In this document: piece after piece, positions 12,625-35,814 of the stretch
Numbering within the stretch: the first letter of the stretch is position 1
Layout of the letters: every line of letters starts with the position of its first letter
Origin: a virus
Taxonomy: Duplodnaviria > Heunggongvirae > Uroviricota > Caudoviricetes
Direction: 5' to 3' (one strand)
Length of the DNA: 64,000 nt
Virus record (IMG/VR): IMGVR_UViG_3300045988_149498
Notes under the pieces: model-generated
Told to the model about the DNA's origin: nothing
Databases searched by the model: none
The model's input: the letters and a program-made list of their open reading frames with translations, nothing else
Translations under genes and position numbers: made by a program

Positions 12625-12799
12625 GTATTTTTAAGTCACGAATGCTATCTTTTCGCATCATATTGACCTTTTAATCGTTCAGGCTTATAGTTCCGCCGTC
12701 GTAGCAAATTCTGCGACCAGGTTTGACAGCCTGAATGATTGTGCGGACAACCGCAGATTTCCGATATTGCGGTATTTTTGTGTCCGTTAAACCGCGTTA

Positions 12800-12880
12800 C
12801 GCCCAAATTATGGTGGGGCGTGATGGGGAGGCTTCGGCCTGCTGGTTTCACAATCGCCAGTCTGTCAACCCTGTCACGTC
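12800..12880 (+). ncRNA. c4: c4 antisense repressor RNA (approximate position)
   Basis: Segment between two direct repeats (GTTTGACAGC...GATTGTG at ~12721 and ~12891) contains complementary CTGTCAA and CACAATC elements, as in the P1 c4 model. Boundaries are approximate. Confidence 0.35.
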
Positions 12881-12938
12881 CTGCCACCTGTTTGACAGCG
12901 GGTAGCAGGTTGTTAAACCTGATTGTGAGGCCGTAACT

Positions 12939-16336: not shown

Positions 16337-16439
16337 TACAATCGTTGCGGGTGCTTGAGGCTATCTGCTTCAGGCATGACCCGAAAAGCAGATAGAAGAA
16401 AGCCCCAGATAACATTACGCGTCCTGCAAGACGCTTAAC

Positions 16440-16520
16440 ATTAATCTGAGGCCATATCTATGCTTAGCATACGTAGATTAGCCTCTTACCGACCAAAAGG
16501 TCAAGGAGAAGCAGGCTATG
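16440..16520 (-). ncRNA. Sok-like antisense RNA (position inferred, not resolved)
   Basis: Inferred from hok/mok architecture only; promoter not confidently identified. Confidence 0.2.
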
Positions 16521-16666
16521 AAGCAGCAAAAAGCGATGTTAATCGCTCTGATCGTCATCTGTTTAACCGTCATTGTGACGGCACTGGTAACGAGGAAAGA
16601 CCTCTGCGAGGTACGAATCCGAACCGGCCAGACGGAGGTCACTGTCTTCACAGCCTACGAATCTGA
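16460..16666 (+). CDS. mok-like overlapping reading frame of the hok locus
   Basis: 68-codon ORF beginning upstream of, and overlapping, the hok frame, as in hok/mok loci. Confidence 0.35.
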   Translation: MLSIRRLASYRPKGQGEAGYEAAKSDVNRSDRHLFNRHCDGTGNEERPLRGTNPNRPDGGHCLHSLRI

Positions 16667-31113: not shown

Positions 31114-33128
31114 AAGAGCTGTGCTATGGATCTGTTTGCAGTGGAATTGAAGCCGCGAGTATTGCCTGGGAACCGTTGGGTATGCGTCCGGCGTGGTTTG
31201 CTGAAATCGAGCCTTTTCCATCTGCCGTTCTTGCGCACCGCTGGCCCCATGTCGCCAACCTTGGCGACATGACAAAACTTGCCAAAAAAGTCTTGGCTGG
31301 GGAAATCGAATCCCCTGATGTGCTCGTTGGGGGAACACCTTGTCAGGCATTCAGTATCGCGGGATTAGGTGGTGGGCTTGATGATGAGCGTGGCGCGCTA
31401 ACTTTAAAGTATGTGGAGCTTGCAAATGCAATTGACGACAAACGGGCTGAGTCATTTCTCAAACCAGCAGTTATCGTCTGGGAAAATGTCCCAGGAGTCT
31501 TGTCATCGGCAGATAACGCCTTCGGATGTTTCCTTGCCGGATTGGCTGGAGAAGATGCGCCATTCGAACCAGGTGATCGACCTGAATCAGGAAAAAGTAA
31601 CGCGTTCTGGCGGTGGGATGTCAAAACCGGTTGCCATGCTCCAAAGTGGCCGCAGTGTGGTTGTATTTATGGACCGCAGCGAAAAGTGGCCTGGAGAATC
31701 CTTGATGCCCAATACTTCGGAGTGGCACAACGACGCCGACGCGTGTTTGTTGTCGCAAGTGCTCGAACAGACCTCGATCCCGCAACGGTACTTTTTGAGT
31801 TCGAAGGCGTGCGCCGGAATATTGCGCCGAGCAGAGGCGAGGGGAAGGAAACTACCAGATATACTTCAAACATCGCTATCAGAACTTGCGATGATACAAA
31901 CATAATTGCCATGGCACATGGGCAAGGAGGGGCTGAGATAAAAACCGATAATTCGGCACCAACTTTGACATGTAACCATGAAGCACCAATTGTATTGCTC
32001 GGCGACGGTAGAATGCGCCGTCTTACCCCTGTCGAATGTGAAAGGCTGCAAGGTTTTCCTGATGGACATACATTGATCCCTACGGAAAAGCGTAAAAAAG
32101 TTTCTTCAGATGAACTGGCATACCTTCGCAAAAACTATCCTGATTTGAGCGAAGAAGAGGCCGCGATGCTTGCAGCTGACGGACCGCGTTACAAAGCGAT
32201 CGGCAATAGTATGGCGATACCAGTAATGCGCTGGATTGGCGATCGGATTACCAAGGCTGCATGTCGGCAGAATGAAGGGAATGAAACAAAAGAGCGAAAA
32301 GTTAAACCAGCGGCAGAATTCGAACGGTCCATATTCAAATGGGCTGGTGGAAAATTTGGTGTTCTGGAACAAATCTTTCGCTATTTGCCAGAAGGGAAGC
32401 GCCTGATTGAACCTTTTGTCGGTGGCGGAGCTGTCTTCATGAATGCCGGATACAAGGAAAATCTGCTAAATGATGTGAATGCTGACCTGATTAACTTTTA
32501 CAAGACTTTGCAACGTGAGGAACGTTCACTTATCACTCTGGCGCATCGGTTTTTCCAGGACTACAACACACAGGAAGGATACCTGGCAGTACGGAATGCG
32601 TTTAACAAACAAGTCTATGATGATTTACATCGCGCAGCGGCGTTTTTGTTCCTGAACCGACATTGTTTTAACGGATTGACGCGTTACAACCAGGCCGGTG
32701 AGTTCAATGTCGGTTATGGGAAGTATAAAACTCCGTATTTCCCATTGCAGGAGATGGAAGCCTTCCTTGGTGCGGAAGGGCGTTCTGAGTTTGTATGTGG
32801 TGATTTTGCTGCGGTGATTGAAGCTGCCGGAGAAGGAGATGTCATTTTTTGCGATCCGCCATATGAACCGCTTCCAAATACAGAGGGATTCACGAACTAT
32901 TCCGGTCATGACTTTAAGTTTGAAGAGCAAAAACGCCTGGTGTCTCTGTTGACGGATGCTCATCGCCGAGGTGCAAAGGTTCTCATTACTAACAGTGGCG
33001 CGCCAAACATCAGAGAGCTTTATCATGACAATGGCTTCAGAGTGGAACCTCTTTTTGCCAGACGTTCTGTGTCTTGTAAGGGGGACACTCGAGGTGTTGC
33101 TCATGACGTTTTAGGTATATTGCTATAA
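31110..33128 (+). CDS. dmt: Bifunctional DNA methyltransferase: N-terminal C5-cytosine (Dcm-like), C-terminal N6-adenine (Dam-like), 672 aa
   Basis: GTG start with GGAGAGG Shine-Dalgarno site. C5 motifs GGTPCQAFS (PC) and VWENVPG (ENV); Dam motifs FKWAGGK and DPPYEPL. Confidence 0.85.
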
Positions 33129-33148
33129 TAAATTTATTAGTGTAATAT
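33119..33148. promoter_or_regulatory. Bipartite C1 operator (Op72-like) ahead of the tRNA-ban operon
   Basis: ATTGCTATAATAAATTT overlapping an inverted weaker copy (AAATTTATTAGTGTAAT); overlaps the dmt stop codon. Confidence 0.55.
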
Positions 33149-33800
33149 CGCCTCAATGAATCGTGATTTATAGAGCGATTTAGCTGTTAGCCGCGACAGG
33201 CGCGGCGGTAAGCATGGCTGGGCCTAGTCCTCCCAGACAAACCACCGAGTTGCCAGGTTGACCATGCGCCTAAGTGGCAACGCCGAAGTGCGTTACGAGC
33301 TTCCAGTTTGCCCATCTTCGGGTGGGCGTTTTTTTCAGGGTTTTCGTCATGGTTAGCGACTTTGCGGCGGTTTAGAAACTGACCATTAAAGTAAATGCAA
33401 ACGATAATCTGATGATGGTAGCGGCCTAAGAAGCCAGACGCCACGGGGTATGAGTCGTCCCCCGTCAAAAAATCGACCACAGAGTGTCCCCGTCTGTGTA
33501 TTAGGGAACGGGGAGGCACAACAGGTAAGGGCGCTGGTGTGATTAACCAGATGAACGAGAAGGGGCCATCTGTTGGTCAGCGTCCTTTCCTGTTGCGTCT
33601 TCTTTTCAGCGTAACAGCGGTGCTTAACAGCACTTTGGGTACAGTTCCACGAATTTACGGGTATATCCCGTCATGCTGAAGGCGCTAATCACGCTGGAAG
33701 CCAGGGTTATGCATCCCCTGTTACCGAATTGCAGTCAGGGCGCGGTGCGCCGAAAAGCATACGGAGGTGGAAGCCCTCGCCGGAGACGTACCCGGCAAGT

Positions 33801-33876
33801 GATGGTGTAGCTCAGCGGTTAGAGCGGTTGACTGTTAATCAACGGGTCGATGGTTCAAATCCATCCACCATCGCCA
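33801..33876 (+). tRNA. tRNA-Asn (anticodon GTT)
   Basis: 76-nt cloverleaf: 7-bp acceptor stem GATGGTG/CACCATC, anticodon loop CTGTTAA, T-loop TTCAAAT, 3' CCA encoded. Confidence 0.85.
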
Positions 33877-33878
33877 AT

Positions 33879-33954
33879 GCCGGTTTAGCTCAGTTGGTAG
33901 AGCGCCTGCCTTGTAAGCAGGATGTCAGCGGTTCGAGTCCGTTAACCGGCACCA
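33879..33954 (+). tRNA. tRNA-Thr (anticodon TGT)
   Basis: 76-nt cloverleaf: acceptor GCCGGTT/AACCGGC, anticodon loop CTTGTAA, T-loop TTCGAGT, CCA encoded. Confidence 0.85.
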
Positions 33955-34666
33955 GCACAACAGGTAAGGGCATTCTCCCTTATGGGGCTTGGCTTAAATG
34001 CATCGAGTGCTCTTACCGTTGTGATGAAGTGCAGCTCTTTGAAGCAACCAGAAGATAAGCATCTGGCTTCACAACATAAACCGCAGGAACGACCAATAAA
34101 CGGTAGTCCGTATGGAGAACACCCCGTTGAGGAAGAGGCCTGGCCGGAACCGTAACCGGCACTACAACGTTGAGAACATTGGCGTAACGGGGTCATATCC
34201 CAATCTATGAATAAATGTCGCGAGGCAGCGTGACAACCAGTGTTCTCAACATTGTGGTGAATGCACAGGCTGATGTGCCGCAACTACAGTAGTGCGCGCT
34301 TTGCGGGGCTTGCTACAACCCTGTGTCGGAGTTCAGCACCGACCATCACAGTTTGATTCTCTGGCATGAGCATAACGCTGAAATAAGTCCAGTCTGGTGC
34401 GGTCTGATCACCCGCCGTTAGCTCCACGAAACGGAGCACGTAACAGGTAAGAGCATTCTCCTGTAACGGGTTCATATCCCAATCTACAGGTCCACCAAGA
34501 ATGCTCTTTCCGTTGCGGTGAATGCGGCTAAGCGCACGCGGGGAAATGGTTATATCTGTCCATTATTTCTCCTTGTTTCCCCGTCCACGGTAGATAACCA
34601 GCCAAAGGATACCGGGAGGCACCCGGCACCGCAGCTTTTTTATTCGTTAAATAATGGAGTGAGAGG

Positions 34667-34903
34667 ATGCAGAACAATCCGAACAAATGTCGAACGCTAT
34701 GGGTGCGGTTATATATTTATGCCGTCCTCTGTTTGATTGTGTCACTGGTTCTGTATGTTTGGCTTTTGCCAAATATGATCTCATCTAACAGCACAATACT
34801 TGTATTGTTGGGAGTCCTTCTCGCGCTCATTTACCCGGCTTTCGCAGTAGTCTTTTTTCGTGAAAAAACCAGGAAATTAATTAATGAAAAAAACGTTGAT
34901 TAG
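34667..34903 (+). CDS. Small membrane protein, 78 aa
   Basis: GAGAGG Shine-Dalgarno site; two hydrophobic helices; stop overlaps the start of the SPFH gene. Confidence 0.45.
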   Translation: MQNNPNKCRTLWVRLYIYAVLCLIVSLVLYVWLLPNMISSNSTILVLLGVLLALIYPAFAVVFFREKTRKLINEKNVD

Positions 34904-35711
34904 TGCAGCGATTATTTTGGGTTCTTTATGTCTGACCGGATGCGATCGGGTAGAGCCAGGTAACGTAGGGATCAAAGTAAATAAGCTGGGGGATGATAAA
35001 GGTATCGGTGAAGTAGTTGGCGTTGGTCGCTACTGGACAGGCTTGAATACTGAAGTTTATATCTTCCCGACCTTTAAGCAAATGAAGACATACGATGAGC
35101 CGTTCAGCTTCCAGATGAGCGACGGAACAACCATTGGTTACCACATCGGCGTAGCCTACAAGGTTGATCCAGCAAAAGTCACAACGGTATTTCAGACCTA
35201 TCGCAAAGGTGTAGATGATATTACTGATACCGATCTACGCCAGAAGGTTGCAGATGCTCTGAACCGGTTAGCCAGCAAAATGACCACCGACAAATTTATC
35301 GACGGTGGCAAATCTGAATTGCTTGATGCAGCCCTTAAAGACATTCAGGAAGAAATGACGCCAATCGGCATTCAGGTGATGAGCCTCTCTTATGTAGGTA
35401 AGCCAGAATACCCGCCAACAGTTATTGACAGTATTAACGCCAAAGTCACGGCAAACCAAAAAACCCTGCAACGCGAGCAAGAGGTCAAACAACGTGAAGC
35501 AGAGGCCAACATGCTGCGCGCGGAAGCTGCCGGACAGGCTGATGCTATTCGCACAAAAGCCCAGGCCGAAGCTGATGCCATTCGTTTACGTGGTGAAGCT
35601 CTGCGCCAGAACCCCGGTGTTATGGAGTTGGAAGCGATCAACAAATGGAACGGTACATTACCGCAGTATATGACCAGTAATACCGCTGTTCCGTTTGTTC
35701 CGGTGAAATAA
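34884..35711 (+). CDS. SPFH/band-7 (HflK/C-like) lipoprotein, 275 aa
   Basis: Signal peptide with lipobox LTGC; SPFH-like core; C-terminal Ala/Glu-rich coiled coil. Confidence 0.65.
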   Translation: MKKTLISAAIILGSLCLTGCDRVEPGNVGIKVNKLGDDKGIGEVVGVGRYWTGLNTEVYIFPTFKQMKTYDEPFSFQMSDGTTIGYHIGVAYKVDPAKVTTVFQTYRKGVDDITDTDLRQKVADALNRLASKMTTDKFIDGGKSELLDAALKDIQEEMTPIGIQVMSLSYVGKPEYPPTVIDSINAKVTANQKTLQREQEVKQREAEANMLRAEAAGQADAIRTKAQAEADAIRLRGEALRQNPGVMELEAINKWNGTLPQYMTSNTAVPFVPVK

Positions 35712-35738: not shown

Positions 35739-35814
35739 GGCCCTTTAGCTCAGTGGTTAGAGCTGGCGACTCATAATCGCACGGTCACCGGTTCAAGTCC
35801 GGTAGGGGCCACCA
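35739..35814 (+). tRNA. tRNA with CAT anticodon (Met or lysidine-modified Ile)
   Basis: 76-nt cloverleaf: acceptor GGCCCTT/AGGGGCC, anticodon loop CTCATAA, T-loop TTCAAGT, CCA encoded. Confidence 0.8.

Follow-up and report, generated by a model that had tools for sequence, protein, structure and literature searches.

A 1.5-kb interval (positions 33150 to 34660) of a viral DNA stretch of 64,000 nucleotides (IMG/VR record IMGVR_UViG_3300045988_149498; its full length is referred to as the window) is probably the untranslated leader of a rightward, C1-repressed ban operon and acts as plus-strand RNA. The window is a P1-like phage-plasmid with 100% identity to an E. coli NADC1036 plasmid, and across the studied interval it is 96.6% identical to P1 (AF234172, locus L001), where the annotation of the same interval comprises a note "dicF-like region" and, on the minus strand, the genes plp and upl. 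With moderate confidence, we propose that the leader joins a DicF-type small RNA (sRNA) to a tRNA/mRNA precursor that is segmented by RNase III. The interval is non-coding, it folds into long hairpins whose arms covary under a constraint on one strand, it is homologous to the dicBF spacer of the E. coli K-12 prophage Qin, and its tRNA cassettes vary between relatives. Positions of all features are collected in Table 1.

The interval is non-coding and folds into four long hairpins

An earlier reading made without database searches (the sequence-only reading) had seen no convincing open reading frame (ORF) on either side of the tRNA genes and had called the minus-strand ORFs spurious. We compared all relatives of at least 85% identity and used the flanking dmt and SPFH genes as controls. 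Neither the upstream spacer (33150–33800; variable sites by frame position 36/34/32, p=0.89) nor the downstream one (33955–34660; 38/33/26, p=0.33) shows 3-periodicity, and insertions or deletions of 1 and 2 nt are common among the relatives. The control genes gave 20/21/89 (dmt) and 7/1/74 (SPFH) and contain zero indels. On the minus strand, variable sites are distributed over the codon positions as 21/23/25 in the plp-like ORF (synonymous to nonsynonymous changes 19:56) and as 4/9/9 in the upl-like ORF (7:15), and 5 of 10 full-length plp homologues carry a frameshift or a stop; neither ORF shows the purifying selection expected of a protein-coding gene. Because of these periodicity, codon-position and frameshift results, a conserved coding frame that had been overlooked can be dismissed, and both statements of the sequence-only reading on coding status hold.

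That plp (as a lipoprotein gene) and upl are real minus-strand genes to which the conservation of the interval is due is hardly credible. Both are annotated in AF234172, NC_005856, RCS47 and JL22, Upl matches PHROG families, and gene-level RNA-seq lists upl among the genes up-regulated in a dksA host. However, the matching PHROG families are only those derived from such annotations, a Pfam search of the two ORFs returned no family, and RefSeq/PGAP as well as the annotators of P7 and D6 call no gene in the interval. Apart from the missing codon-position signal and the broken homologues, the length of the plp ORF is inconstant (378 nt in P1, 420 nt in RCS47, 342 nt in the window), P1 plp runs antisense over tRNA-Thr, and the upl interval is swapped for a tRNA-Ser cassette in P7, D6, an E. 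albertii plasmid and others. The predicted upl promoters of P1 (L001 4076–4135) lie beyond the end of its homology to the window, and non-strand-specific reads over "upl" could equally derive from the plus-strand leader.

All repeats, the inverted repeat and the terminator listed in the sequence-only reading exist, with coordinates shifted by a few bases. The 17-mer GCACAACAGGTAAGGGC is found exactly at 33516 and 33955 and with 76% identity at 34438; two exact copies compare with 0.17 expected in the 64-kb window even with three mismatches permitted. Copies of the 24-mer GTAACGGGKTCATATCCCAATCTA start at 34184 and 34463 (0.00 expected), the 14-bp inverted repeat is part of a 23-nt one (34160–34182 and 34237–34259, 87% complementary), and the stem of the terminator-like hairpin is followed by seven U (33329–33335). 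What had been missed is a conserved structured element (element 1, see below) ahead of the terminator and the common nature of the repeats: both kinds, direct and inverted, form the 5′ and 3′ arms of four long hairpins on the plus strand, A to D, with z between −3.7 and −5.8. The view of the region as structured RNA finds computational support in each of its parts, though to varying extent. Hairpin B begins 2 nt past tRNA-Thr, and its counterpart in P1 is a variant with a canonical T-arm-like tip (AGGGTTCGAATCCCT). The apical parts of hairpins C and D contain the first (34184–34207) and second (34463–34486) copy of the 24-nt repeat, respectively, in C with a 3-bp T-arm-like stub, and the differences between the arms of C and D are compensatory.

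A scan of ∼340 loci from phages, plasmids, E. coli genomes and viral contigs revealed a hairpin family defined by outer CAYAAC/GTTRYG and an inner RAG/CTY anchor, with 25 clusters at <90% arm identity. Its members reside in P1-like elements, SSU5-like phage-plasmids and lambdoid prophages (Q-holin late leader and dicB operon); within the window, strict members are confined to the leader (0.03 expected). Hairpins A and B pass the strict scan, C (TACAAC…ATTGTG) and D (CGTAAC…GTTGCG) are variants of the motif, and all four fit the pair table of the family, for which the stems were anchored on RAG/CTY. Three to five Watson-Crick pair types occur at each of the positions −5, −4, +1, +2, +6 and +7 and two at −2, while −1 (A-U) and 0 (G-C) are invariant; position −3 is mismatched in 12 of the 25 clusters, and +5 is a U·G wobble in 14. 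The arms covary across diverged family members.

At the helix positions of this table, G·U outnumbers A·C by 20:2, and an earlier, independent and stricter scan gave 24:11 (p=0.04). A G·U pair turns into a C·A mismatch when the complementary strand is read, so the constraint lies on the plus-strand RNA, which is also the strand that encodes the tRNAs and the operon. Two other versions of this test were discarded, the first (65:7) because its detection criterion favoured G·U and the second (205:200) because it was swamped by false stems.

Weakest among the claims of the sequence-only reading was that of tRNA-like relics. Pseudo-tRNAs are absent from the window, where the 24-nt repeats hold only T-arm-like stubs with 3-bp stems that fail our 4-bp criterion; in the otherwise variable apical parts of the wider family, canonical T-arm-like minihelices do occur, in 5 of 26 clusters (0.04 expected). 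An Rfam search of the family hairpins, YrlA included, gave no family match. The sole hit to YrlA (RF02553; 23.9 bits, gathering threshold 69) overlaps true tRNAs, and the most tRNA-like hairpins (viral contig L144) had no match at E≤5. In L144 and two further viral contigs (L082 and L167), the hairpin immediately 5′ of element 1, a lambdoid member of the family, encloses an apical domain of ∼97 nt. These domains contain two canonical T-arm-like hairpins (CTGGTTCGATTCCAG and GTCCGTTCGATTCGGAC), and such a tRNA-like multi-branch on a long stem resembles a Y-RNA-like architecture, again with no YrlA match in Rfam. The 3′ arms of several hairpins (window 34005–34025 and 34498–34520; also in loci L005, L009 and L012) contain TGCTCTTA or TGCTCTTT, which is identical to the boxA antitermination core (rrn TGCTCTTTAACAA, lambda CGCTCTTA). 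Binding of NusB/S10 to a boxA in these arms is not proposed, because the motif is paired within the stem and changes together with its partner.

Element 1 and the DicF locus of K-12

In E. coli K-12, DicF exists as a 53-nt species with an RNase E-dependent 5′ end and as a stable 190-nt species, the 5′ end of which is generated by RNase III: the 190-nt RNA is lost in Δrnc, accumulates in rne-ts, and has no internal promoter (10.1101/2023.04.14.536235; PMC9438474). Both terminated species are abundant, while a ydfABC-dicFB-ydfDE read-through species was not detected (10.1101/2023.04.14.536235). In the ydfC-dicB spacer of Qin (locus L003), we found a member of the hairpin family (2411–2496), followed by a block homologous to window 33191–33285 and by DicF itself (2622–2673). 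Subtracting 190 nt from the DicF terminator puts the 5′ end of the long species at about 2484–2489, within the 3′ arm of the hairpin (2474–2495); this position is derived from RNA lengths (±5 nt), not from the RNase III site published for K-12, position 813/814 of the dicBF transcript. The sole experimentally mapped member of the family would thus be an RNase III site, and the 190-nt RNA would consist of the conserved block, that is element 1, plus DicF. By this homology, the processing sites suggested in the sequence-only reading gain support. Hairpins A to D, with ∼20–35 pairs and few defects, have the double-stranded length required by RNase III (about two helical turns or more) and are, by analogy, putative substrates of this enzyme in P1.

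The rRNA operons, the T7 early mRNA and the T4 tRNA cluster are polycistronic precursors with RNase III processing stems. Their stems are likewise long and imperfect (∼20–35 bp with mismatches) and flank stable RNAs or cistrons, whereas the stems of the leader are unrelated in sequence and mostly enclose short apical domains, with the tRNAs located between the hairpins.

Element 1 corresponds by homology to the 5′ portion of the 190-nt DicF RNA and is 77% identical to K-12 L003 2501–2597, just 5′ of DicF. A covariance model built from 18 variants (R1) scored 87–130 bits in 34 loci from Escherichia, Shigella, Citrobacter, Trabulsiella and Serratia genomes and viral contigs (92.5 bits in the window). 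In the alignment of these 34 loci, 95.3% of the cells in five helices are paired and eight pairs are changed on both sides; none of 500 shuffles paired as well, and slid controls reached 31–52%. The pseudoknot helix, GYAUGG with CCAURC, lies outside the covariance model; 99.5% of its cells are paired, and a U-A pair is exchanged for C-G. A search of Rfam returned no family for element 1. The sequence of its loops is strongly conserved (GGUUGACCAU). In the second helix, the loop (window 33224–33232; columns 39–84 of alignment A4) varies but is always pyrimidine-rich with a UCCU/CCUCC core, similar to an anti-Shine-Dalgarno sequence. In the window, its CCUCCC is complementary to GGGAGG in a hairpin of the STnc100-like element described below (34611–34616). 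A search inside the leader for a partner of GGTGAATGCGGCTAAGCGCACGCGG gave nothing convincing.

In every case, element 1 is succeeded by a slot closing with a GC-rich stem and a U run. The slots fall into 11 clusters at <80% identity, and in all 11 the Rho-independent terminator lies within ∼40–130 nt of element 1. Like DicF, the sRNA part is directly preceded by a conserved structured 5′ domain. The slot of the window holds the position of DicF in Qin with a sequence that is not DicF, and among the slot representatives scanned against Rfam, only DicF-type slots were recognized as DicF. From the predicted start of P1ban (∼33155) to the terminator, the RNA would measure ∼180 nt. It appears to correspond to the 190-nt DicF species, except that a C1-controlled promoter would produce it directly. 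The small RNA foreseen in the sequence-only reading is supported by architecture, since the arrangement of structured domain, seed and terminator agrees with that of the DicF locus; the word "undescribed" holds only in part, as the P1 record carries a dicF-like label over some of this RNA. A riboswitch reading of element 1 was discarded: the terminators and spacers downstream of it share no sequence relationship.

At its other end, the leader closes with an STnc100-like element. Against the STnc100 model (RF02076), the window scored 33.0 bits (E 5e-5, model positions 31–147 of 206), below the gathering threshold of 47, and the syntenic K-12 dicF-dicB spacer is likewise sub-threshold (34.1 bits). 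Window 34514–34541 is 93% identical to the K-12 sequence just past DicF. Based on the matches of element 1 and of this element, the two ends of the P1-type leader correspond to the ends of the Qin ydfC-dicB spacer, and ∼1.15 kb of extra modules lie between them.

The closest known system is the Qin dicBF spacer, with the window falling outside the DicF and STnc100 families of Rfam. Both share the order of modules, from element 1 through a terminator-ended sRNA slot to an STnc100-like element before the next ORF, and the same hairpin family. They differ in that element 1 of Qin is released by RNase III from a polycistronic mRNA, whereas in the window a promoter and not a hairpin lies upstream of element 1, which is reached directly from this C1-controlled start; in that the Qin slot contains DicF and that of the window does not; and in the ∼1.15 kb of tRNAs, hairpins and blocks that separate terminator and STnc100-like element in the window. 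The STnc100/PasD family consists of prophage sRNAs found in prophage context and often near tRNAs (bioRxiv 10.64898/2026.05.13.724894). In the partial model match, the element of the window shares the closing helix and the CCGGGAGGCACCCGG hairpin with this family, but it is the last module of a leader in front of an ORF and not a free-standing sRNA gene.

Cassette exchange, proposed processing and rival explanations

Apart from tRNA-Asn and tRNA-Thr, neither ARAGORN nor the Rfam tRNA model (even at E≤10) detected a tRNA, pseudo-tRNA or tmRNA in the interval; matches to Rfam miRNA and tmRNA models were artefacts of hairpins or tRNAs. The same scaffold carries different tRNA sets in relatives: Asn-Thr in P1, RCS47, SJ46 and the window; Asn-Tyr-Thr in Ro157c2YLVW; Asn-Thr plus Ser in P7, D6, the E. 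albertii plasmid (L010) and an E. coli plasmid (L011); Asn-Tyr-Thr-Ser in an SSU5-like plasmid (L012); and Asn and Ser in a Klebsiella plasmid (L013). In SJ46, the stretch separating the two 24-nt repeats is missing, with the breakpoints at the repeats, and in RCS47 extra sequence is inserted at the 17-nt repeat, where the overlap is 22 nt. Homologous recombination with the hairpin arms as junctions would account for the different tRNA and sRNA cassettes on one scaffold. In spacer S5, window 34265–34350 is 100% identical to L012 2480–2565, which is followed by tRNA-Ser; in place of this tRNA, the window has an unrelated 87-nt stretch ending in a small hairpin, GCTCC-ACGAAAC-GGAGC (34421–34437).

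Several modules are shared with the Q-holin leaders of P22-like and lambdoid prophages and with the tRNA region of SSU5-like phage-plasmids, namely hairpin B (95% identity), block S2 (82–84%), the 34413–34457 block (91%), cassettes with tRNA-Asn/Tyr/Thr/Ser and other hairpins of the family. Block S2 is common to the Q-holin late leaders of P22-like prophages and to the start of the SSU5-like tRNA region (the above identity refers to L004 3001–3109 and L005 3084–3180), and the 95% identical copies of hairpin B lie directly 3′ of tR′ in the prophage Q-holin leaders. The operons, promoters and regulators differ (Q antitermination versus C1 repressor), the module order is shuffled, and the prophage Q-holin copies examined have lost the tRNAs. 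In one such P22-like prophage leader (L005 2902–3090), a pR′-like promoter and a tR′-like terminator are immediately followed by a copy of hairpin B, a second terminator-like hairpin and block S2. Further on, there are T-arm-like fragments but no tRNA by ARAGORN, so that this locus looks like a late leader that lost its tRNA cassettes. In the E. coli tyrT operon, which gives rise to rtT RNA, repeats downstream of the tRNA genes contain pieces of tRNA 3′ halves. The T-arm-like minihelices in the hairpin tips recall this arrangement, but in the window the T-arm-like pieces are degenerate.

We propose the following course of events. Once C1 repression is lifted, transcription would start at ∼33155 and yield as its first product an RNA of ∼180 nt ending at 33336, which comprises element 1, an unpaired seed and a strong intrinsic terminator. 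As for DicF, RNase E may then trim this leader RNA down to a short, Hfq-type sRNA that has a target specificity of its own. Transcripts reading through the terminator would contain tRNA-Asn and tRNA-Thr among the four long hairpins, then the STnc100-like module as 5′ untranslated region, and would continue into the genes for the small membrane protein and the SPFH protein, tRNA-Ile2/Met and ban. Cleavage of hairpins A to D by RNase III would separate the tRNA-containing pieces from each other's flanks and from the mRNA, the leftover stems might cap and protect the new ends, and the dense structure would leave little naked RNA along the 1.5-kb untranslated stretch. The conserved arms would serve a second time as junctions for homologous recombination.

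Some observations weigh against this proposal. The folding energy of element 1 is indistinct from that of shuffles (z −0.1), so its support is comparative; for four of the five helices the alignment A4 had been fitted to the model, and the covariation events are not independent because they lie mostly between paralogous or mosaic copies. The DicF model of Rfam (RF00039, gathering threshold 48 bits) had no match at E≤10 in 33100–34700, with the same search giving 76.7 bits for DicF in K-12. The RNase III assignment derives from the one mapped K-12 site, placed by RNA length. If the terminator is strong, expression of the tRNAs and of ban would require read-through, and the proposal leaves the conserved blocks S2 to S5 unexplained. 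The P1vir RNA-seq studies examined are at gene level and do not mention leader RNAs, and we found no RNA-level data for P1.

A rival explanation is evolutionary debris, that is, decayed tRNA and sRNA cassettes in which hairpins and element 1 persist by recent descent and by hitch-hiking with the tRNAs and have no present function. The leader is indeed highly mosaic with frequent indels of any length, tRNA-Ser has been replaced by unrelated sequence in the lineage of the window, its T-arm-like stubs are degenerate, and blocks S2 to S5 lack a convincing structure (for S2 aligned with the SSU5-like loci, the consensus structure is weak with −7.8 kcal/mol, and for S3 to S5 the loci compared are not diverse enough to reveal covariation). 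In addition, conservation within the group says little, because P1-like copies are at least 90% identical. We nevertheless consider debris rather unlikely: hairpin arms that are <90% identical still pair through compensatory changes and retain the non-canonical −3 mismatch and the +5 U·G, the excess of G·U over A·C points to selection on one RNA strand, element 1 keeps its five helices from Escherichia, Shigella and Citrobacter to Trabulsiella and Serratia loci, and the K-12 homologues are processed into stable RNAs. The strand asymmetry and the conserved U·G also speak against a primary role at the DNA level, in which the CAYAAC…GTTRYG palindromes would be attC-like or crossover sites mobilizing cassettes and RNA folding would be incidental, since they indicate a constraint on one-strand RNA and not on duplex or cruciform DNA. 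In favour of such a role, these palindromes bound the alternative cassettes and recur in three unrelated phage groups, the SJ46 and RCS47 endpoints fall within repeats, and the outer AAC/GTT is reminiscent of the R″/R′ boxes of attC, which have the consensus RYYYAAC/GTTRRRY. CACAAC/GTTGTG does not fit this consensus, however, and no integron-type integrase adjoins the arrays. An integron attC was therefore rejected: GCACAAC/GTTGTGR departs from the consensus, and no IntI-type gene is annotated beside the arrays in the P1, SSU5-like and Klebsiella loci. The ∼22–24 nt of identity at the junctions is what ordinary homologous recombination would produce. We hold a primary DNA-level role to be very unlikely, while as a secondary consequence it is compatible with an RNA-processing leader.

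A further possibility concerns element 1, which might act in cis as an antiterminator like the put RNAs of HK022, modifying RNA polymerase to pass the following terminator and to reach the tRNAs and ban (dicB in Qin). In line with this, element 1 is always immediately 5′ of an intrinsic terminator irrespective of the slot sequence, the transcription start of P1-like phages is ∼35 nt away from it and all genes further downstream depend on passing the terminator, and its conserved loops are as expected for an RNA that binds a protein or the polymerase. But put RNAs are two simple stem-loops without a pseudoknot, element 1 is not known to resemble them, and in K-12 the terminated species are abundant with read-through undetected, which fits the stable 5′ domain of an sRNA better. 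Such an antiterminator thus appears quite unlikely. We also entertain, as a speculative and rather improbable extension, that temperate enterobacterial phages share a modular "RNA cassette" system, in which element 1 is the common chassis for at least 11 interchangeable, terminator-bearing sRNA warheads and dedicated RNase III hairpins, their non-canonical features fixed, delimit the tRNA and sRNA cassettes. If this were true, the contribution of element 1 may be stability, a protein partner or read-through of the terminator, the hairpins would serve both processing and exchange among unrelated phages (P1-like, SSU5-like, lambdoid), and prophage induction would lead to expression of the P1 leader RNA as a new regulator acting in trans.

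With a DicF-type leader sRNA and an RNase III-segmented precursor as the preferred reading, a 1.5-kb blind spot of a model phage would be reread as an RNA-processing leader, and plp and upl, two long-standing "genes" of P1, would be dropped from its protein list. The ban operon of P1 is tied to the experimentally studied DicF locus, which predicts a P1 leader sRNA made upon induction. Two conserved RNA motifs without Rfam entry, the 5′ domain of the 190-nt DicF species and the CAYAAC…GTTRYG hairpin family, recur in P1-like, SSU5-like and lambdoid (P22-like and Qin-type) loci and could improve the annotation of sRNA/tRNA islands. Variable Asn/Tyr/Thr/Ser tRNAs on a fixed scaffold are of a locus type thought to counter tRNA-cleaving defences of the host, and the processing signals make this idea testable.

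Feature positions and neighbouring genes

Table 1. Features in and around the ban operon leader (coordinates of the 64,000-nt window)
Feature	Position	Strand	Description
dmt	end at 33128		methyltransferase gene
Bipartite C1 operator Obanab with overlapping promoters P1ban/P2ban	33119..33148	+	−10 at 33143–33148; collinear with P1 AF234172 L001 2504–2549; palindrome
Element 1	33189–33294	+	∼106-nt structured domain, five helices including a loop-loop pseudoknot; overlapped by the P1 dicF-like region
sRNA slot	33295–33336	+	mostly unpaired seed-like stretch (…GAAGUGCGUUACGAGCUUCCAGUUU), then intrinsic terminator stem 33309–33328 + U7
Block S2	33340–33449	+	GTTTTCGT…GCGAC…TGCAAACGA…GCCTAAGAAGCCA; conserved mainly in primary sequence
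Hairpin A	33511..33603, family core 33517–33598	+	CACAACAGGTAAGGGCGCTG… / …CAGCGTCCTTTCCTGTTGCG; minimum free energy (MFE) −48.4 kcal/mol, z −5.8
tRNA-Asn (GUU)	33801–33876	+	ARAGORN; Rfam tRNA 74.5 bits
tRNA-Thr (UGU)	33879–33954	+	ARAGORN; Rfam tRNA 74.9 bits
plp-like ORF	33942–34283	−	113 aa, 342 nt; judged not coding
Hairpin B	33956–34025	+	CACAACAGGTAAGGGCA… / …TGCTCTTACCGTTGTG; MFE −35.3 kcal/mol, z −3.7
Hairpin C	34160–34259	+	CACTACAACGTTGAGAACATTGG / CCAGTGTTCTCAACATTGTGGTG; MFE −46.7 kcal/mol, z −5.5
Spacer S5	34265–34437	+	first 86 nt = segment directly 5′ of tRNA-Ser(UGA) in SSU5-like plasmids
upl-like ORF	34284–34475	−	63 aa; judged not coding
Hairpin D	34438–34520	+	CGTAACAGGTAAGAGCATTCT… / …AGAATGCTCTTTCCGTTGCG; MFE −37.1 kcal/mol, z −4.7
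STnc100-like element	34514–34633	+	multi-branch, closed by UGCGGUG/CACCGCA; ends ∼34 nt before the ORF at 34667
First convincing ORF downstream of the tRNAs	start 34667		small membrane protein, then SPFH/Band-7 protein
78-aa membrane protein	34667–34903		in place of the P1 tci module
275-aa SPFH/Band-7 lipoprotein	34884–35711		in place of the P1 tci module

The bipartite C1 operator that the sequence-only reading had put at the 5′ edge of the leader was located by collinearity with the P1 annotation, and the transcription start was predicted from P1ban. The sole σ70-like match in the leader, CTGACC-18-GATAAT (9/12), lies at 33379–33408 in block S2, shortly after the terminator. With one match found and 3.3 expected, it is not above chance; if it were active, the tRNAs would escape C1 control.

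Homology between the window and P1 stops at ∼34641 (P1 L001 4060), just past the STnc100-like element. From there, window 34641–35711 compares with P1 L001 4060–4782: the tciA-tciB-tciC module of P1 is swapped for two other genes in the window (Table 1), and RCS47 and Ro157c2YLVW show the same exchange. Downstream of the SPFH gene follow a tRNA with a CAU anticodon (35739–35814) and then ban. ARAGORN called this tRNA a tRNA-Met, and its P1 homologue is annotated as tRNA-Ile2 (ileX-like, lysidine-modified). Elsewhere in the window, at 12685–12737, 12806–12891 and 16349–16523, Rfam detected the P1 immunity C4 antisense RNA with a1/b1 target sites and the sok antitoxin RNA of a hok/sok-type addiction module.

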